Shown here: piece after piece, positions 1-5,057 of the stretch
Layout: each line of letters starts with the position of its first letter
Position numbering within the stretch: position 1 is the first letter of the stretch
Assembly: GCF_004376175.1 (NCBI RefSeq)
Contig: NZ_SNUY01000078.1
Span: 10,458-15,514 of the forward strand
Direction: 5' to 3'
DNA: 5,057 nucleotides
DNA from: Halalkalibacterium halodurans
Lineage (GTDB): Bacteria; Bacillota; Bacilli; Bacillales; Bacillaceae_D
The notes under the pieces: model-generated
What the model saw: only the letters and a program-made list of their open reading frames with translations
Told to the model about the DNA's origin: nothing
Databases searched by the model: none
Position numbers and translations under genes: made by a program

Positions 1-124
1 CTTTAAAAACAGTATCTACTGTTTGACTAAACCATCCATTATCACCACCAAGTGCTACCCCTAGCACTCCAAAGAGCATTACAGCAAGAACAATTAAAAA
101 CAAAGATCCATTTTTTTCACCCAT
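1..124 (-). CDS. 5' part (41 codons) of a small protein with a short charged N-terminus followed by a hydrophobic segment of about 20 aa. It is a pilin-like or signal-anchor candidate and continues beyond the left edge.
   Basis: ATG at 124..122 is preceded by a strong SD, AAAAGGGGGTGA (G-run at 137..133), with a 6-nt spacer. My translation is MGEKNGSLFLIVLAVMLFGVLGVALGGDNGWFSQTVDTVFK, open to position 1. It is missing from the ORF track because it is truncated by the window edge. Confidence 0.6.
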   Translation of the reverse strand, partial: MGEKNGSLFLIVLAVMLFGVLGVALGGDNGWFSQTVDTVFK

Positions 125-145
125 CAGCTTCACCCCCTTTTCGAA

Positions 146-180
146 TAAAAAAACACGAAACCTAATAGCTTCGTGTTTTT
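146..180 (-). terminator. Rho-independent terminator downstream of the ATPase gene.
   Basis: Minus-strand RNA reads AAAAACACGAAGC-UAUUAG-GUUUCGUGUUUUUUUAUU. The stem is 9 bp (153..161 pairing with 168..176, one G-U pair), the loop is 6 nt, and the stem is followed by 6 unpaired U (A7 run at 147..153 on the plus strand, whose innermost base is in the stem). On the plus strand the same stem has an A-C mismatch and a shorter T-run, so it works better for the minus strand. Confidence 0.6.
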
Positions 181-194
181 CCCTATTCATCCAC

Positions 195-255: not shown

Positions 256-1344
256 TCACATAAAAATACTTGGTACTTGATGTATTTTTTCAGCAAAAAT
301 CAGGTTTTTCTTTGTTTTTTCAGAAATCCTACCCATAAACTCTTCTTCATGATATTTTTTCGTTTCCTCATCATACTTTTTAATTCTCTCATAGATTAGA
401 TTATATTCAATCCCATCTTCGGAAAAATCCAGAAATTCAACGATTTCTTTTATATAACGCCGAATGCTTCCTTCTTTTGTATAATCCATCCCCATATGGA
501 TACCAAAACCCAATTGACTAATATCTTTTCCGAGTAACAGTTCATTTTGTTGATAAACCTTCCCGATCATTCTCATGATCCGACTAGGAATACTCTTTGC
601 GTCCGAAGCGTGCAAAGTGGTAATAATACTATGGTTCGTAAGAGCCGACTCAAGCATTTCATAAGCTTCTCCCCCCCTTATCTCCGAAATGATCAACCAG
701 TCAGGATTATTTCTTAATCCCGATTTAATCAGATCGTGAAACGTAACATTGATGTTCTCTTCTTTTCTAATCCTCCAACTACGAATATCCTTATTTGGGT
801 AAAGAGATTTAATGTGACTATCCATCGTATCTTCCATAAGAGTGATATTATGATGTTCAGGGATAAAATCGACCAAAAGCTTTTGTAATTCTGTTTTACC
901 AGATCCAGTTTCTCCGCTTATAATCATATGATTTTTTGTTTCCACTAAGACTTTTAATAATTGTTCTATCTGACTGTTTGCTAAAGTAGCGAGACTAGTA
1001 ATTGCTTTTCTTGGTTTGGAAACCCGAATTGCCATTGTTATTCCAAAAGGGCTAATAGTCTTATGGACAGCATTCAGCCTTATATTATCAATTTCTGTGT
1101 CTAGTATCGGACTAGCGTCCGTAAACTCTTTATTGCGGATATTTGCTATTGATCTTACGATTGTGGCAATTGCTTCTTGAGACGGTTGATCTTTAGCTTT
1201 ATACCGCCCTTTTTTATTGTCTTGAATAAATAAAGTCGTACCGTTATAAGATATATCAGTAATATCATCATTCATTAGATACGGTTCCAAAAAACTTGAA
1301 TATAAAAGTTCTTTAATCTCCTTATTTTCAGTTTGTTTATCCAT
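256..1344 (-). CDS. VirB11/CpaF(TadA)-family secretion or pilus-assembly ATPase (T2SSE superfamily), 362 aa.
   Basis: Walker A GETGSGKT (aa 144-151, nt 892..915). Asp box NITLMEDTMD. Walker B region PDWLIISEIRGGEAYE. His box ITTLHA. SD AAGAGG (1356..1351) lies 6 nt upstream of ATG 1344. The gene starts 20 nt after the upstream stop. Confidence 0.93.
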   Translation of the reverse strand: MDKQTENKEIKELLYSSFLEPYLMNDDITDISYNGTTLFIQDNKKGRYKAKDQPSQEAIATIVRSIANIRNKEFTDASPILDTEIDNIRLNAVHKTISPFGITMAIRVSKPRKAITSLATLANSQIEQLLKVLVETKNHMIISGETGSGKTELQKLLVDFIPEHHNITLMEDTMDSHIKSLYPNKDIRSWRIRKEENINVTFHDLIKSGLRNNPDWLIISEIRGGEAYEMLESALTNHSIITTLHASDAKSIPSRIMRMIGKVYQQNELLLGKDISQLGFGIHMGMDYTKEGSIRRYIKEIVEFLDFSEDGIEYNLIYERIKKYDEETKKYHEEEFMGRISEKTKKNLIFAEKIHQVPSIFM

Positions 1345-1364
1345 ACTTAACCTCTTTTCTATCC

Positions 1365-2060
1365 CTATAGTCCGCTTAATGCGTCATTTACCGTCATAAC
1401 CAAAGATACAGCAACAAAACTTAAGGTGAATAATACACATGTAATAAGCACAGGGTTAGCGTATTTTTCCATAGCATTTACTTTATACTTAATTAATTCA
1501 TTGGTTTTATTAAAGTGTAATTGGTAAATAATCGTTTCCAACTCTTTTAAATCCTTTTTATTCACTCCATGCTCTGAAAAGTCATAAATAATGCTCATTA
1601 CATTAACAGCTTCGGGCGTACCAATATAATGAGCAAAATCTAAATATGAGTTTCGATCATTTTTCTTTTCAATGGCATTAACTAACTTTTGAAGTTCATC
1701 ATGTAATAAAGGGTGCTTTACATATTTTAGTGTTGCCTTTAATGTTTGATACACATTTCCCTGAGTTTCTAATAGCGAAATGAAATATCTTAAAAAAATT
1801 GGAAAAATGATCGACTTGATCTTATCTACTCGATTTTTCTGCATTAATAACTGTACATAAGGTAGTTTATAACCTAAATAACCTAAAAGGGGGACACCTA
1901 TTAAAGCAAGGGAAATATTTTGAAACGAGTAACTTGAGAACAAGGCAAAAAGTACAAATAGACACGCCCACACTATCCGATATCCGTTGAATTTCGCCTT
2001 ATTCACTTTAAACACTTGAAACAGATCTTCTTTCTCTTTTTCCAAAATAAATTTAATCAT
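1365..2060 (-). CDS. Integral membrane protein of about 231 aa resembling a single T2SSF (TadB/TadC/GspF-type) platform domain.
   Basis: Two N-terminal TM helices (IVWACLFVLFALFSSYSF and ISLALIGVPLLGYLGY), a cytoplasmic helical domain of about 120 aa, and a C-terminal TM (PVLITCVLFTLSFVAVSLVMTV). The cytoplasmic part (FPIFLRYFISLLETQGNVYQTLKATL...LLHDELQKLVNAIE...LDFAHYIGTPEAVNVMSIIYDFSEHGVNKKDLKELETII) follows the spacing I remember for TadB/TadC. The ORF-track start at 2093 is probably too long: ATG 2060 has GGGAGGA (2072..2066) at good spacing and overlaps the upstream stop as ATGATTAA. That this is a CDS is solid. The family call is moderate and rests on memory only. Confidence 0.7.
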   Translation of the reverse strand: MIKFILEKEKEDLFQVFKVNKAKFNGYRIVWACLFVLFALFSSYSFQNISLALIGVPLLGYLGYKLPYVQLLMQKNRVDKIKSIIFPIFLRYFISLLETQGNVYQTLKATLKYVKHPLLHDELQKLVNAIEKKNDRNSYLDFAHYIGTPEAVNVMSIIYDFSEHGVNKKDLKELETIIYQLHFNKTNELIKYKVNAMEKYANPVLITCVLFTLSFVAVSLVMTVNDALSGL

Positions 2061-2072
2061 CCTCATCCTCCC
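2053..2072 (-). promoter_or_regulatory. Translational-coupling junction: SD and start of the platform gene lie inside the last codons of the T4CP gene.
   Basis: The minus strand reads GGGAGGATGAGGATGATTAA. SD GGAGG is at 2071..2067, the start ATG at 2060..2058 and the T4CP stop TAA at 2055..2053. Confidence 0.7.
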
Positions 2073-4314
2073 AATCCTCATCCTCTGTGTCATTCACTTG
2101 ATCGAATAGTAAGCCCCCGCCCTTTTGTAATTTTTTAAAGGTGTCGACTGCTTCTTTTTCTTGTTCCGTATTAACTACATTAATTATGTTTAGCTTTTTG
2201 TACTTCTCTTCCCAATAACTCCACTCTTCTAACTCAAAAAAGGGCTTTATTGTTTGTTTAACTCGGTCAATCGCATTTGAGGGAAGATGTTTAGCTACAT
2301 GAAAAAGAAATGATTGAAATTGTAGAAATGTAAAATCATCAAAGTTATCCTCAAAGATTTTTAGTTCATCTTCTGGCAAACACTCATACATTACATCTTT
2401 AATTAGCTTTTGATCCCCCAGATCCAGTTCATTCGTTATTTTCCCAAACTTATCTTTATGATTCTTTGTACCAAAAACTAGCCTTTCAACATCAAGATCT
2501 TTATGTTCTCCTACTATCGGTAAATCCAAAATAGATCCCGATGTATCAAACTCATCCGTCAGGTATCTCCACCTTGATTTCAAAGATGTTTTCCCTGTAT
2601 TGTATATAGGCTTGGGCGTCACTTTATTTCTCTTTTTGTCTTGCCTTTTTATTACCCTTACTACCACACTTTCTTCTTCTAATAATTCCATCAATTGATT
2701 TGGGTCTAATAACCATTTGTCTTTTACTGTTTCTGTAGCAGTTTTGTTTAAAGACAAAAACGCTCCATTTCTAGTAAGATCATCAATGGTTTTTTTACCT
2801 ATCAATTTCGAAAAATGTTCGGCAGTTGACAGGTCATTAGTCAAAATGTATATTTGGTTACCGCAGTTACCACTTATGGTCTTACTTGCACTTCCATAAA
2901 CTTGATCAAGCTGGCTATAGGCTTGCACGATCAAATTAAATCGTATATTGCGCCCCAAGCAAACAGTAATGATCGTGTCCATCCCTTCAATAGGAGGCAT
3001 ATTTCCAAATTCGTCCAAAAGAAAAACAACTTCCCTTTCACATTTATTCCCCTTAGAAACGGAAGCTTTTCGAGCCAAAACGAAATACAGTTGTCTAACA
3101 AAGACAGAAGCCAATGCATGATTACTTTTATCATAATCAGGAGTAACCATGAAAATAGCTACAGGCTTTTCTCCAAATCCCACTTTTTCCATATCCAAAT
3201 TATTCATACATGTCATCTTGGCGTTCTCAGTTAAAGCAAACACCTGAAGCTTTGCCATAGTTGCAGAAAAAATAGAACCTCTCGTATTCCCTTTGGCGAA
3301 ATTACTATTTGCATATTGCATACGAGCTGGATCAGTTGATGACCGCCTTTGGAAAAACTTATCTAACTCATTTTGTCCTTCTTCATCCTCTTTTGCTCCA
3401 AGATCAGCAATAAAATTAGCCACAGAATATAAGTTTATCTGTTCTTCTTTTCCTCTCTTAATTGAATCTGCTGTAATTGCTAATGCTACAGCATTGAACA
3501 GAGACATTGCGCTTTCTTGCCAAAATTTATCTTTGGCTGATGGGTCACTATAAAGGCTAAAAGATATAGTATTACAAAGGAGTTGCGCCCTAGAAACATC
3601 CCCAGCTTTATATGCGTCTATAACTAATTGTAAAGGGTTGTATGACATGCTTAGATCAGGATTGAGTAAATTTAGTATATATACTTCATACCCACGCTTT
3701 TTAAGCGTTTCGAAGGAACTAGCCGCTAATTCACCTTTCGGATCATTGACAATTAGTGAAGCTTTTTTTTCAGCCCTTGAATAAATATCAATTGTTGGAA
3801 AAACAAACGTTTCGCCTTTCCCTGATCGAGTTGTACCAATGACCAAATTATTTACAGGGCTATCATCGATGAAAATTCTGTTTTTATATCGAGAAATCGG
3901 TACGCCCCCACCACCACTAAACTCTTTTGTTTTTTCCGGTACAGATCTATATTGTTTCTTTAATTCCCTTAATGTAGTCCACTTCCTTGACCCAAACTGG
4001 TCTTGATTGATAGATCCAAAGTTCTTTCTTAATCGATAGGCAAACTTAACATATCCAAAGGAAGCAATCAGGTAAAAAACAATATAGAAGTAATAGAAAT
4101 CACTTTGAAACTCAAAAAAACTGCCTAAAGGCAGTTTAAATTCTTCAAAAGCAAATAGATCACTCTCAATAACAAGTTTTAATACTCGTACAAGCTCTAA
4201 TATCAAAGCCAAAATGAAGTTTGCAATTAAATACACTATACCTGCATGAACAATAGCCAAAAAAGCTATTGTTTGTGATTTTGCTAAAAACTCTAGTACC
4301 TTTTTTTCTGTCAT
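2053..4314 (-). CDS. virD4: Type IV coupling protein of the VirD4/TraG family, 753 aa, with a C-terminal extension of about 160 aa that ends in an acidic tail.
   Basis: Two N-terminal TM helices (about aa 15-45 and 72-93). Walker A IGTTRSGKGE (aa 160-168, nt 3811..3837) matches the family-typical TRSGKG. Walker B VVFLLDEF (aa 429-436, nt 3007..3030). Conserved QAYSQLDQVYG motif. ATG 4314 overlaps the upstream stop as ATGA, with SD-like GGTGGTGA at 4329..4322. The symbol is given at family level only. Confidence 0.95.
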   Translation of the reverse strand: MTEKKVLEFLAKSQTIAFLAIVHAGIVYLIANFILALILELVRVLKLVIESDLFAFEEFKLPLGSFFEFQSDFYYFYIVFYLIASFGYVKFAYRLRKNFGSINQDQFGSRKWTTLRELKKQYRSVPEKTKEFSGGGGVPISRYKNRIFIDDSPVNNLVIGTTRSGKGETFVFPTIDIYSRAEKKASLIVNDPKGELAASSFETLKKRGYEVYILNLLNPDLSMSYNPLQLVIDAYKAGDVSRAQLLCNTISFSLYSDPSAKDKFWQESAMSLFNAVALAITADSIKRGKEEQINLYSVANFIADLGAKEDEEGQNELDKFFQRRSSTDPARMQYANSNFAKGNTRGSIFSATMAKLQVFALTENAKMTCMNNLDMEKVGFGEKPVAIFMVTPDYDKSNHALASVFVRQLYFVLARKASVSKGNKCEREVVFLLDEFGNMPPIEGMDTIITVCLGRNIRFNLIVQAYSQLDQVYGSASKTISGNCGNQIYILTNDLSTAEHFSKLIGKKTIDDLTRNGAFLSLNKTATETVKDKWLLDPNQLMELLEEESVVVRVIKRQDKKRNKVTPKPIYNTGKTSLKSRWRYLTDEFDTSGSILDLPIVGEHKDLDVERLVFGTKNHKDKFGKITNELDLGDQKLIKDVMYECLPEDELKIFEDNFDDFTFLQFQSFLFHVAKHLPSNAIDRVKQTIKPFFELEEWSYWEEKYKKLNIINVVNTEQEKEAVDTFKKLQKGGGLLFDQVNDTEDEDWEDEDD

Positions 4315-4724
4315 TTTAACTTCACCACCCGTCTACACTCAAGAATATCCATTACGAATGATGACAGCATTAACATTGCAATACCAACCAAAAAGTATAG
4401 AGCATACATTGAAACAAAGGCTGATAAGAAGCCGATAGCAACAATCGGACTTAGAACCACGACGATGGCTATATTTCTAATTACTTTTTTTGATTTCAAG
4501 AACAGAAACCCTTTTGCTGTCACTACTGTCCCTGTAACAACAAGGAACGATATAATTAGATAAAATCCGTACAAAATCATAAAAATGAAAACCAGTTTTT
4601 CAGTTGATGAGGTTTCCTTATAGCTGCTGTAATGGGTAAATATTTCACCTATCCATCCATAAAGCGATACTAAAAGGACAAAGGCTACAGAAAACCAGAT
4701 AAACACTTTTTTATACATTGACAT
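4311..4724 (-). CDS. Small polytopic membrane protein (137 aa, about 4 TM helices) of unknown function, translationally coupled to the T4CP gene.
   Basis: SD AAGGAGA (4739..4733) lies 8 nt upstream of ATG 4724. There are four hydrophobic stretches (about aa 7-25, 44-68, 84-105 and 106-130). Its stop TGA (4313..4311) overlaps the T4CP ATG. I recognise no motif. Confidence 0.8.
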   Translation of the reverse strand: MSMYKKVFIWFSVAFVLLVSLYGWIGEIFTHYSSYKETSSTEKLVFIFMILYGFYLIISFLVVTGTVVTAKGFLFLKSKKVIRNIAIVVVLSPIVAIGFLSAFVSMYALYFLVGIAMLMLSSFVMDILECRRVVKLK

Positions 4725-4738
4725 AAGCGTTATCTCCT

Positions 4739-4942
4739 TTAATTTCTCTTATTTATAGTTACAGATTTAGTTGTACTCATGTTTTCTGTGGTACCAAAAA
4801 CTGATGTAAACTCATATTCATATTTAATATTGATTTTAGTACCTACAGGTACAACAGAAGATATTGTCTCCCCTGTATTCGCATTTTCAAATTTAACATA
4901 GAGATTTGAGTTCTCTAATTCCTTCACCTTTGTATTTTGCAA
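4739..4942 (-). CDS. Small beta-rich protein of unknown function. The start is uncertain and the gene may be frameshifted, with a true N-terminal signal or anchor segment.
   Basis: The ORF-track start at 4942 is a TTG with no SD. The same frame stays open upstream to a TAG at 5026..5024 and encodes a hydrophobic stretch (WQTSAFFIAFLCTFL) with no ATG, GTG or TTG. An SD-equipped ATG (4992..4990, SD AAAGGA at 5003..4998) sits in the neighbouring frame and stops at 4924. The downstream part (NLYVKFENANTGETISSVVPVGTKINIKYEYEF...) looks like alternating beta strands. Its stop TAA (4741..4739) is embedded in the next gene's SD. Confidence 0.5.
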   Translation of the reverse strand: MQNTKVKELENSNLYVKFENANTGETISSVVPVGTKINIKYEYEFTSVFGTTENMSTTKSVTINKRN

Positions 4943-5057
4943 TAGAAAAGTGCAGAGAAATGCAATGAAAAATGCAGAGGTTTGCCACCCATTTAATTCC
5001 TTTTCGACAATGCGTGGGACAGTCTATAGCTCTCGCCATGAAAAGAGATGATATGGG

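Follow-up and report, generated by a model that had tools for sequence, protein, structure and literature searches.

The 5,057-nt stretch of Halalkalibacterium halodurans DNA analysed here (the window) appears, on balance, to be the central part of a Bacillaceae DNA-transfer cluster acquired by horizontal transfer, in which a coupling protein (T4CP) has been inserted into, and translationally coupled to, a compact and very divergent Tad/archaeal-type filament module that serves mating by a VirB4-type T4SS. We lean towards this reading as a whole, if only by a modest degree. The encoded proteins match H. halodurans proteins with full identity. Every gene in the window lies on the minus strand, and the order is minor-pilin-like gene, 137-aa membrane protein, T4CP, T2SSF-like platform, CpaF/VirB11-superfamily ATPase, hairpin and Flp-sized pilin-like gene.

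The first-pass annotation described the T4CP, platform and ATPase genes as joined by an 8-nt overlap and a 20-nt spacer, and direct reading of the sequence confirmed both junctions. The T4CP gene ends in ...GAGGATGATTAA and the ATG of the platform-like ORF (position 2060) lies inside this string, so the two genes overlap by the 8 nt ATGATTAA; the Shine-Dalgarno sequence of the platform gene, GGGAGG, sits 8 nt upstream, inside the T4CP gene. This start, which gives 231 aa, is also used by the NCBI record of an identical protein (starting instead at the in-frame ATG at 2093 would lengthen the protein to 242 aa). Between the platform stop (1365) and the ATPase ATG (1344) runs the spacer GGATAGAAAAGAGGTTAAGT, which contains AAGAGG. 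At the other end of the T4CP gene, its start overlaps the stop (ATGA) of the 137-aa polytopic membrane protein (4311..4724, minus strand), called from its ORF and hydropathy. This protein had no family match in profile searches and no homologue in any related locus, and is not recognisable as an A24 prepilin peptidase. Downstream of the ATPase gene and ahead of the small pilin-like gene, a hairpin followed by a U-run (143..188, minus strand) has the form of an intrinsic terminator or attenuator; its RNA fold of -20.6 kcal/mol (z = -5.9) was equalled by 0 of 200 shuffles, and a simple terminator scan did not pick it up.

The T4CP (2053..4314, minus strand; 753 aa, anchored in the membrane by its N-terminus and ending in an acidic tail) is a VirD4/TraG protein, as its first reading had it, and belongs to the CD1115 subfamily. 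It scores 466.9 bits against NCBIfam NF045973 ('VirD4-like, CD1115 family'; cutoff 250), matches Pfam T4SS-DNA_transf (PF02534, 9.5e-52) and TraG-D_C (1.1e-24), carries TRSGKG (Walker A) at residue 162, LLDEF at 432 and QAYSQL at 464, and is 45-49% identical to T4CPs of P. larvae and B. subtilis plasmids.

Judged by its predicted fold, the 231-aa protein (1365..2060, minus strand) is a very divergent, single-repeat T2SSF-like (TadB/TadC/FlaJ-like) platform whose profile matches are all sub-threshold (T2SSF, PF00482, E = 0.026 and 14.9 bits against a cutoff of 25.2; ArlJ/FlaJ, 8.4e-5). Its AlphaFold model (pLDDT 86.7) matched the cytoplasmic domains of EpsF, OutF and PilC in Foldseek with probabilities of 0.94-0.98 and TM-scores of 0.60-0.74; the E-values were 0.4-1.2, so the fold assignment stands on probability and TM-score. 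There was no match to VirB3, VirB6 or VirB8, and hhalign found no alignment between E. coli GspF and the platform profiles. T2SSF is the sole recurring Pfam family among the relatives (9 of 20 close and 10 of 93 remote), which NCBI names 'FlaJ' or 'T2SS F family'. Hydropathy gives strong transmembrane segments at 28-47 and 200-228 and AlphaFold adds a helix from residue 49, so the three-segment topology first proposed is plausible rather than proven. In relatives, a second platform paralogue lies downstream of the ATPase gene; its T2SSF match (E = 0.036, profile positions 2-119 of 125) and its hhalign match to the platform family (E = 3.6e-5, 166 columns) point to a TadB/TadC-like pair.

SpoIIIAB (6bs9) is also among the fold matches of the platform, with a Foldseek probability of 0.84, and SpoIIIAB is a GspF-like partner of the secretion ATPase SpoIIIAA in a machine without pilins. 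This match favours a conventional reading in which the ATPase is a VirB11 analogue that docks beneath VirB4 and powers the Gram-positive T4SS channel. The T2SSF-like proteins would then serve just as its membrane adaptors, in the way SpoIIIAB serves SpoIIIAA, and the small proteins would be ordinary bitopic components of the channel rather than subunits of a filament. We consider this reading unlikely, and the ATPase bears on it from both sides. The 362-aa protein (256..1344, minus strand) is a secretion-superfamily hexameric ATPase (T2SSE; CpaF/VirB11/FlaI group), with a T2SSE match above cutoff (PF00437, 5.4e-28) and intact Walker A (GETGSGKT, 144), Asp (EDT, 171), Walker B (LIISE, 217) and His (TLHA, 243) boxes. 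Its NCBIfam score for VirB11 (111.8 bits) is about that for the TadA family (TIGR03819, 112.6), as a VirB11 analogue might show, with FlaI lower (94.9) and each score below its own cutoff. By pairwise score it is nevertheless nearer CpaF and archaeal GspE/FlaI than VirB11, its best PDB matches being CpaF (83.6 bits), archaeal GspE (83.5), FlaI (70) and VirB11 (61.5 and 56). In a neighbour-joining tree it is not nested in VirB11; with the pAW63 and Listeria plasmid ATPases it forms a clade of its own (100%), a Bacillales plasmid clade outside canonical VirB11, CpaF and FlaI, which argues against a VirB11 analogue. We also know of no T2SSF partner of a canonical VirB11.

Both edges of the window carry pilin-like genes. 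At the left, a Flp-sized major-pilin-like gene (1..124, minus strand) starts at an ATG at 124 preceded by AAAGGGGGTG, reads MGEKNG followed by SLFLIVLAVMLFGVLGVALGG..., and runs past the window's end after 41 codons. At the right, a minor-pilin-like gene (4739..5057, minus strand) that belongs to the 'hyp118' family is represented by its 3' part (residues 17-121 and stop), with its start 48 nt past the end; the full 121-aa protein, on the identical contig L006 (2426-2791), begins MGEKTG followed by FLFCLVLSLVFIVPF. The two families (53-64 aa and 110-127 aa), in other respects unlike each other, have in common M-G-E-K-x-G and then about 20 hydrophobic residues, with a strong Shine-Dalgarno sequence at the MGEKxG start in each case. 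Gly6 is kept in 8 of 8 members of the smaller family and 9 of 10 of the larger, where Phe directly follows it in 8 of 10. Homologues of the small protein occur in L002, L007, L008, L010, L011 and L012, often in two or three tandem copies, with related forms on pAW63, a Listeria plasmid and pXO1; the hyp118 family, to which pXO2-21 belongs, immediately precedes the platform gene in 10 loci. The AlphaFold model of the minor-pilin-like protein (pLDDT 83) has a lollipop-like architecture, with a 48-residue N-terminal helix, a short helix and three strands.

A VirB11 analogue with bitopic channel parts would leave both the MGEKxG leader plus helix in two families and the tandem small genes unexplained. 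In its favour, neither the window nor any fetched locus yielded an A24 prepilin peptidase, and Glu+5, like the Flp G/XXXXEY motif, is absent from the pilin-like subunits. Against filament subunits, too, the pAW63 homologue of the small protein is without the Gly leader, no MGEKxG small-pilin gene turned up in what was fetched of the two relatives that have VirB4, the minor-pilin-like model had no significant PDB structural match, and neither platform nor pilin-like proteins passed a curated profile threshold. For such subunits, one hyp118 member matched DUF4320 below threshold (E = 0.0017) and a pilin-like protein weakly matched the GspH N-terminus (E = 0.017). The suggestion that the edge proteins are filament subunits gains real support from their common leader and helix and from the conservation of this pair across loci.

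Module synteny is conserved across 10 loci, and relatives have the same pilin-like pair, the second platform paralogue and large adhesin-like proteins. The T4CP lies inside the module in the window and in two VirB4-containing plasmids; seven related loci carry the module without an internal T4CP, so T4CP-platform adjacency is not a general property of it. On those two plasmids, from B. subtilis and P. larvae (L003 and L004), a single operon encodes the module together with VirB4, a hydrolase, a MobP2 relaxase and a VirB6-like protein. Since these closest T4CP-sharing relatives place it in a complete, ordinary Gram-positive T4SS operon, the motor is probably a T4SS accessory and not a replacement, and by the same comparison the window's own element would have a VirB4 channel. 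Such an operon would also suit a VirB11 analogue, a reading weakened in turn by module-bearing loci where VirB4 was not found. The proposal that the VirB11-like protein is a Tad-like motor ATPase gains from the platform fold and the non-VirB11 clade but is tempered by this operon; each of the computational checks suggested with the first-pass annotation came out favourable or neutral.

In the seven loci without an internal T4CP, which hold no VirB4 in the stretches examined, WxL surface proteins and large proteins of MucBP- or Ig-like type accompany the module, and the position of the T4CP differs from locus to locus. Both observations would suit an adhesive Tad-like pilus for surface attachment or aggregation, carried as plasmid cargo independent of DNA transfer and joined to a T4CP by an accident of rearrangement. 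We think this improbable: the 8-nt overlap and the Shine-Dalgarno sequence within the T4CP gene speak against an accident, L003 and L004 interleave module and T4SS genes, and a T4CP-like gene or remnant lies near five of the seven loci, two of which also have a replication-relaxation protein.

Those same genes, together with the coupling of T4CP to platform, could instead indicate that export runs through the filament machine itself. The T4CP would pass relaxase-DNA straight to the platform and ATPase, and a pseudopilus acting as a piston would push it through the wall, like ComG in reverse, with VirB4 dispensable or absent. At such related loci tblastn found no VirB4 within ±10 kb, none is annotated in 77 kb of a Peribacillus plasmid, and PAPI-1 transfer has been described as T4P-dependent, in a system that has few T4SS parts. 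We give this conduit little credence: among relatives that share the T4CP subfamily, the closest also encode VirB4, a hydrolase and a VirB6-like protein, and VirB4 may sit outside the stretches examined or be missing from incomplete plasmid gene tables. To our knowledge, T4CP docking on a T2SSF platform has no biochemical precedent.

We infer how an accessory filament might work. The hexameric ATPase would dock onto the cytoplasmic helical domain of the platform, joined in relatives by the second paralogue, and ATP-driven movements would pull the small MGEKxG-leader subunits out of the membrane. The leader would be cut after Gly6, probably by a ComC-type host prepilin peptidase, and the subunits would stack into a short pilus or pseudopilus across the thick cell wall. 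The 121-aa minor pilin may prime this filament and, in relatives, may display the large adhesin-like proteins. The filament would help a Gram-positive VirB4-type T4SS to form mating pairs or to penetrate the wall, and the co-translated T4CP would bring the relaxase-DNA complex.

The first-pass annotation held that well-studied Gram-positive conjugation systems lack VirB11, and a 2025 review says the same of Gram-positive T4SSs. It also mentioned VirB11 annotations without a mechanistic role on pXO2/pAW63-type plasmids; these indeed exist on pAW63, pXO2 and also pLS20, with the mechanism unassigned, and those of pAW63 and pLS20 would fit a VirB11 analogue. The idea of a Tad motor is less new than was assumed, because a 2010 table, citing a 2007 analysis of pXO1, lists pXO2-25 as virB11/cpaF/tadA and pXO2-23/24 as tadB/tadC; the TadA/TadB/TadC likeness of pXO1/pXO2-type genes was thus already tabulated in 2007-2010. 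No pilus for pLS20-type conjugation is reported in the literature, and our analysis suggests that some Gram-positive mobile elements mate via a pilus-like filament, which reviews deny them. The pAW63 and pLS20-type plasmids have the same parts as the window's module in a different order, and in pLS20 the homologous genes, numbered 36-41, lie within the conjugation operon, a further point against an adhesive pilus independent of transfer. pXO1 has a fuller Tad-like set than the window, with CpaB and a ParA/TadZ-like ATPase, in a cluster that, as an adhesive pilus might, adjoins WxL proteins.

All substantial ORFs of the window lie on the minus strand of AT-rich DNA (GC 0.29-0.37), and direct reading of the junctions bore out the first-pass annotation's picture of three consecutive genes joined by an 8-nt overlap and a 20-nt spacer. 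The first ORF (753 aa, 2053-4314) ends in GAGGATGATTAA, inside which lies the ATG (2060) of the second gene (231 aa, 1365-2060), so that the two genes share the 8 nt ATGATTAA, with GGGAGG upstream; the same 231-aa start is used in the NCBI record of an identical Halalkalibacterium halodurans protein (P0001). A 20-nt spacer with AAGAGG then separates the stop of the second gene at 1365 from the start of the third at 1344 (362 aa, 256-1344). The identification of the first protein as a VirD4/TraG-type coupling protein (T4CP) was equally sound: it carries the motifs TRSGKG (at 162), LLDEF (at 432) and QAYSQL, has a hydrophobic N-terminal membrane anchor (residues 13-52) ahead of its Walker A/B nucleotide-binding domain, and scores above cutoff against both NF045973 ('VirD4-like, CD1115 family'; 466.9 bits, cutoff 250) and PF02534 (176.8 bits, cutoff 20.1; 9.5e-52). 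Judged by these motifs and profiles, it is a bona fide coupling protein of the CD1115 subfamily. Of the genetic links seen here between recruitment of a DNA substrate and the putative motor described below, its overlap with the second gene is the tightest.

Near-identical DNA was absent from plasmid and phage collections, exact-DNA scans of metagenome and viral contigs did not find the window, and exact-protein look-ups for its proteins returned two contigs only, of 1.7 kb and 7.4 kb. A contig identical to the window but reaching further upstream of the module (L006) has, at 2-2034, the 3' end of a gene for an acidic-repeat protein anchored by a C-terminal TM segment and then three or four ORFs for small acidic soluble proteins, which have no counterpart in related loci. 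Within the window, a 137-aa membrane protein with about four TM segments (4311-4724, minus strand) sits between the minor-pilin-like gene and the T4CP gene, with an ATGA overlap; it has neither a family match nor a homologue in any related locus. We considered it as a TadV-like peptidase and rejected it, given the missing family match and one visible Asp against the two needed in the active site.

The second protein had been read as a T2SSF platform, a claim that held at the level of fold and fell short at the level of sequence profiles. Its scores were below threshold against T2SSF (PF00482; 14.9 bits, gathering threshold 25.2, E=0.026) and against ArlJ/FlaJ (21.7 bits, cutoff 400; 8.4e-5). 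An AlphaFold model (pLDDT 86.7) places a helical cytoplasmic domain between two TM helices at the N-terminus and one at the C-terminus, and this domain resembles those of EpsF, OutF and PilC as seen in crystal structures of their cytoplasmic domains (Foldseek probability 0.94-0.98; target-normalised TM 0.60-0.74, rmsd 2.8-4.0 Å over 105-123 alignment columns), with E-values of only 0.4-1.2; SpoIIIAB was also among the fold matches. T2SSF was the sole recurring Pfam family among relatives of this protein, matched by 9 of 20 close ones (best E 0.011). An exhaustive profile search of 1.84 billion representatives yielded 321 relatives at E<=0.001, and among the 93 remote ones that were scanned, three matched T2SSF at E<=0.001 and ten at E<=0.1 (best 1.3e-5). 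NCBI labels several relatives 'T2SS F family protein' or 'FlaJ'. The gene adjoins the ATPase gene in all ten loci compared, with pilin-like genes in the same cluster. A profile built from 20 relatives drew only chance matches from PDB sequences (a bromodomain and centrin, for example), and hhalign found no relation between either platform-family profile and E. coli GspF, although a single-sequence template makes this a weak test. No VirB3-, VirB6- or VirB8-like signal appeared, in line with the view that the protein is not a standard T4SS channel part. We take it to be a T2SSF-like protein of the single-repeat kind that has diverged very far, on the strength of its modelled fold and despite profile scores that stay below family thresholds. 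In relatives, the ~250-aa membrane protein encoded beyond the ATPase gene matched T2SSF at E=0.036 (profile positions 2-119 of 125) and aligned with the platform family by hhalign (E=3.6e-5, probability 71%, 166 columns); by these alignments it is a second platform paralogue, such that a putative TadB/TadC-like pair flanks the ATPase.

The third gene encodes a secretion ATPase, but its proposed VirB11/CpaF affiliation was only partly upheld. The protein scored well above cutoff against T2SSE (PF00437; 98.1 bits, cutoff 24.9; 5.4e-28) and has the expected catalytic boxes (Walker A GETGSGKT, Asp box EDT, Walker B LIISE, His box TLHA). Among NCBIfam models it came close to even between the TadA family (TIGR03819, 112.6 bits) and VirB11 (TIGR02788, 111.8), with FlaI at 94.9 and TrbB at 84, all far below cutoffs (373 for TIGR03819 and 249.95 for TIGR02788, for example). 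Against PDB sequences the best scores were to CpaF (83.6 bits) and an archaeal GspE-like protein (83.5), followed by FlaI (70) and VirB11 (61.5 and 56); the alignments to CpaF, GspE and FlaI also covered the N-terminal domain. In a neighbour-joining tree (249 columns, 200 bootstraps, rooted on E. coli GspE, with references from annotated plasmids and PDB alignments), the ATPase formed one clade (100%) with seven Bacillales relatives and the ATPases of pAW63 and a Listeria plasmid. This clade fell outside the VirB11 (100%), CpaF (100%) and FlaI/archaeal GspE (100%) clades, with deep nodes at only 44-66%; the firm nesting within canonical VirB11 that would have counted against the filament-motor reading was not seen.

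The suggestion that small proteins with hydrophobic N-termini at both ends of the module are filament subunits proved well founded, because two families sharing an MGEKxG leader are both present in the window. The first is minor-pilin-like (~115-121 aa): residues 17-121 are encoded at 4739-5057 on the minus strand, and the full protein, read from the longer identical contig, starts MGEKTG/FLFCLVL. The second is a small, Flp-sized family, whose gene starts with an ATG at 124 (minus strand) after AAAGGGGGTG, opens with MGEKNG/SLFLIVLAVMLFGVLGVALGG and runs out of the window. Common to both families is a leader M-G-E-K-x-G followed by ~20 hydrophobic residues, with a strong Shine-Dalgarno immediately 5' of each start; Gly6 is kept in all eight small proteins and in 9 of 10 longer ones, and Phe+1 in eight of the ten longer ones. 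A short leader ending in Gly before a hydrophobic helix, in one Flp-sized and one pseudopilin-sized protein, is on sequence grounds the signature of a prepilin-peptidase substrate. Neither Glu+5 nor the Flp motif G/XXXXEY is present; position +5 is Met, Leu or Ile, and the pilin-like proteins contain no Glu-Tyr. The 121-aa protein was modelled (pLDDT 83) as a 48-residue N-terminal helix, a short helix and three strands, a fold without a significant match in the PDB. The only profile matches of the pilin-like proteins were weak ones, to the GspH N-terminus (E=0.017) and DUF4320 (0.0017). No A24 prepilin peptidase is annotated in the Peribacillus asahii (NZ_CP085715), B. subtilis (NZ_CP123978), P. 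larvae (NZ_CP019656), pAW63, pXO1 or Listeria plasmid loci, and tblastn with GspO, GspF and GspG against all fetched loci returned no matches; because none of the loci has an A24 peptidase, the leader would presumably be cleaved by a host ComC-type peptidase. A single membrane protease was noticed in the neighbourhood of these modules, a CPBP-family intramembrane glutamic endopeptidase on the Listeria plasmid (11584-12042 of L019), a few kb downstream of its pAW63-type module.

The small gene occurs in tandem copies in other loci, with three near-identical ones of 64 aa on the Peribacillus plasmid (9342-10094 of L002) and two in L010 (12856-13273), and pXO1 has three tandem 67-aa genes (11941-12693 of L018). 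A major structural subunit would be expected to have its gene amplified in this way. Between the ATPase stop and the small gene in the window, RNA folding reveals a strong hairpin with a U-run (143-188, minus strand; -20.6 kcal/mol, z -5.9) that a simple terminator scan did not pick up, leaving ~20 nt, including the Shine-Dalgarno, before the ATG. This hairpin could be a terminator, or an attenuator setting the ratio of pilin to machinery. By eye, a promoter-like TTCTGA-16-TATATT lies just upstream.

The closest relatives (~45% identical) are on Bacillaceae and Paenibacillus plasmids and contigs, and mapping ORFs between loci defined a conserved module. It comprises an Ig-like protein, a 53-64-aa protein (often in two or three tandem copies), a large protein of 860-1150 aa with a weak MucBP match (684 aa in P. 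larvae), an N-terminal-TM protein of ~130 aa, the ~115-aa protein, the platform, the ATPase and the ~250-aa membrane protein. A CD1115-type T4CP lies between the minor-pilin-like gene and the platform gene in the window and on the B. subtilis and P. larvae plasmids. On these two plasmids the genes of the module are interspersed among those of a complete Gram-positive T4SS operon, which encodes a VirB6-like pLS20_p028-family protein, DUF5592, VirB4, a cell-wall hydrolase and a MobP2 relaxase; a TrbC/VirB2-family protein is additionally encoded on the P. larvae plasmid. A paper on the pLS20 family states that a VirB2 homologue is absent from these plasmids; NCBI applies the name 'TrbC/VirB2 family' to two-TM proteins of 78-99 aa in the P. 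larvae (7677-7913 of L004) and pAW63 (16309-16608 of L005) loci.

VirB4 and a relaxase, which the first-pass annotation proposed to look for in flanking DNA, thus lie beside the homologous trio on the B. subtilis and P. larvae plasmids. In seven other loci the T4CP is not inside the module, and tblastn found no VirB4, VirB6-like protein or MobP2 within 10 kb on either side. T4CP-related sequence persists in five of these seven. L007 (a Caldifermentibacillus contig) and L011 have a divergent T4CP-like gene after the second platform, the start of one lies at the contig end of L008, and the Peribacillus plasmid has a short stretch resembling the T4CP N-terminal membrane region just after the module; L009, L010 and L012 gave no match. 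A 216-aa P-loop ORF with HerA/TrwB-like N-terminal matches lies inside the L011 module (10706-11356), between platform and ATPase and overlapping the ATPase start, and may be a T4CP remnant.

These loci bear on a direct role in DNA conduction without VirB4, in which T4CP, platform and ATPase would form one inner-membrane complex and a pilin-like rod would serve as the route or piston for relaxase-DNA through the Gram-positive wall. The 333-kb Peribacillus plasmid encodes a replication-relaxation (PF13814) protein, a 1017-aa T4CP and an S1-domain protein within 20 kb, and L011 has the same trio with its T4CP-like gene; VirB4 is not annotated in 77 kb of the Peribacillus plasmid, nor was it found by tblastn within 10 kb on either side of the L007 and L011 modules. 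With the module accompanied by a T4CP-like gene, a replication-relaxation protein and an S1-domain protein, the Peribacillus, L007 and L011 loci may represent a transfer system lacking VirB4. We consider the conduit reading improbable, even with a T4CP-like gene, a replication-relaxation protein, the same module and no detectable VirB4 in related loci in its favor. If true, it would make the related loci VirB4-independent conjugation apparatuses, a new class of DNA-transfer system.

A further alternative is that the module is an adhesive pilus carried as plasmid cargo. Genes for WxL and WxL-interacting (DUF916/DUF3324) surface proteins follow the module in the Caldifermentibacillus contig (14712-18471) and on pXO1 (12765-14526), which suggests a linked, cell-wall-bound adhesin set at these two loci.

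The best-supported reading instead places the module in the service of a VirB4-type T4SS. The ATPase and platform(s) would form a filament motor of Tad/archaeal type that builds a short, wall-crossing pilus or pseudopilus by polymerising MGEKxG subunits, and this filament would aid mating-pair formation or wall penetration for the T4SS, with the T4CP co-expressed. The filament is a predicted function, which the anatomy of the locus supports. The analysis established gene identities and junctions, the fold of the platform, the clade of the ATPase, the leader common to both subunit families and the conserved synteny; leader cleavage, polymerisation and a part in transfer are predicted. Several observations stand against it: platform and pilin-like proteins miss their profile thresholds, Glu+5 is absent, the pilin-like fold is unmatched, a small MGEKxG gene was not found in the fetched parts of both VirB4-containing relatives, and pLS20, which transfers efficiently in liquid, has no known pilus. 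A competing reading that dispenses with the filament altogether makes the ATPase and platform a VirB11- or SpoIIIAA/AB-like energiser. Should a filament be built, it would explain how these plasmids connect cells and get through a thick wall, and would offer concrete genes to delete and proteins to image.

Among known systems, the Tad/Flp pilus shares with the module a secretion ATPase, two single-repeat T2SSF-like proteins, a 50-65-aa pilin-like protein in tandem copies and a ~120-aa pseudopilin-like protein with the same leader. Unlike Tad/Flp, the module has an ATPase outside the CpaF clade, profile scores below cutoffs and no G/XXXXEY, its subfamily lacks TadV, TadZ and CpaB, and it is embedded in DNA-transfer genes. 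The pXO1 cluster likewise has a CpaF/VirB11-family ATPase, a TadB-like protein, tandem pilin-like genes, DUF4320 and WxL genes, but its Tad-like set is fuller, with CpaB and a ParA/TadZ-like ATPase as well, its CpaF/VirB11-family ATPase branches separately from the window's clade, and its pilin-like leader is longer (...SSENG/MLIALAV). Canonical VirB11 (Agrobacterium VirB11, HP0525, TrbB) belongs to the same ATPase superfamily and is likewise found in DNA-transfer loci, whereas the window ATPase lies outside its clade; we know of no canonical VirB11 with a T2SSF partner or pilins with class-III-like leaders. Bacillus ComG and SpoIIIAA-SpoIIIAB are also monoderm machines pairing a secretion ATPase with a GspF-like membrane protein, and the ComGC leader (MNEKG/F...) resembles MGEKxG/F. 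ComG differs in importing DNA and in its two-repeat ComGB, SpoIIIA in lacking pilins, and both in having no link to a T4CP. With the IncI1 R64 thin pilus and the PAPI-1 type IVb pilus, too, the genes for a type IV filament (ATPase, platform, pilins) are carried by a conjugative element, and the filament serves in mating, above all in liquid; the hosts are Gram-negative, the type IVb pilus comes with its own prepilin peptidase, and the pil operon is separate rather than interleaved with the T4CP.

The nearest counterparts are the pXO2/pAW63/pBT9727/pLS20-type clusters, in which the 'VirB11' (pAW63 CDS22, pLS20 gene 37, pXO2-25) is flanked by pLS20 36 and 38-41 or pXO2-21 to -24. The ATPases of pAW63 and the Listeria plasmid share the window's clade, the window platform is weakly homologous to pAW63 CDS20 and to the pLS20 gene-39 family, pXO2-21 belongs to the minor-pilin-like family, and a CD1115-type T4CP is present in both the window and the pXO2/pAW63/pLS20-type clusters, which have an adhesin gene upstream. 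The order on pAW63, Listeria and pLS20-type plasmids is adhesin, small TM protein, ATPase, two platform-like proteins, ~120-aa minor-pilin-like protein and ~48-aa protein, with the T4CP ~6-10 kb away in pXO2/pAW63/pLS20-type clusters, whereas in the window it lies between minor pilin and platform. The window ATPase is also shorter (362 against 402-444 aa), identity between the window and these clusters is only ~25-37%, and the small pAW63 homologue lacks the MGEKxG leader. What the window, pXO2, pAW63 and pLS20-type plasmids have in common is an ATPase of the CpaF/VirB11 superfamily, a T2SSF-like platform or two of them, and pilin-like proteins that share a leader. In the literature, pAW63 CDS22 and pLS20 gene 37 go under the name VirB11 and the genes next to them under 'unknown', current reviews state that VirB11 homologues are missing from Gram-positive T4SSs, and papers on lactococcal conjugation describe systems without this ATPase. 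Gilmour et al. 2010 (PMC2834635, Additional file 2) list pXO2-25 as virB11/cpaF/tadA and pXO2-23/24 as tadB/tadC, and, with reference to Grynberg et al. 2007 on pXO1, remark on 'cpa, tad' genes for appendages resembling pili. The literature we found does not mention the pilin-like proteins, their shared leader or coupling between T4CP and platform. The locus is thus of a kind known but neglected, and is new in the insertion of a T4CP into the module and in representing a Bacillaceae subfamily with MGEKxG-leader subunits.
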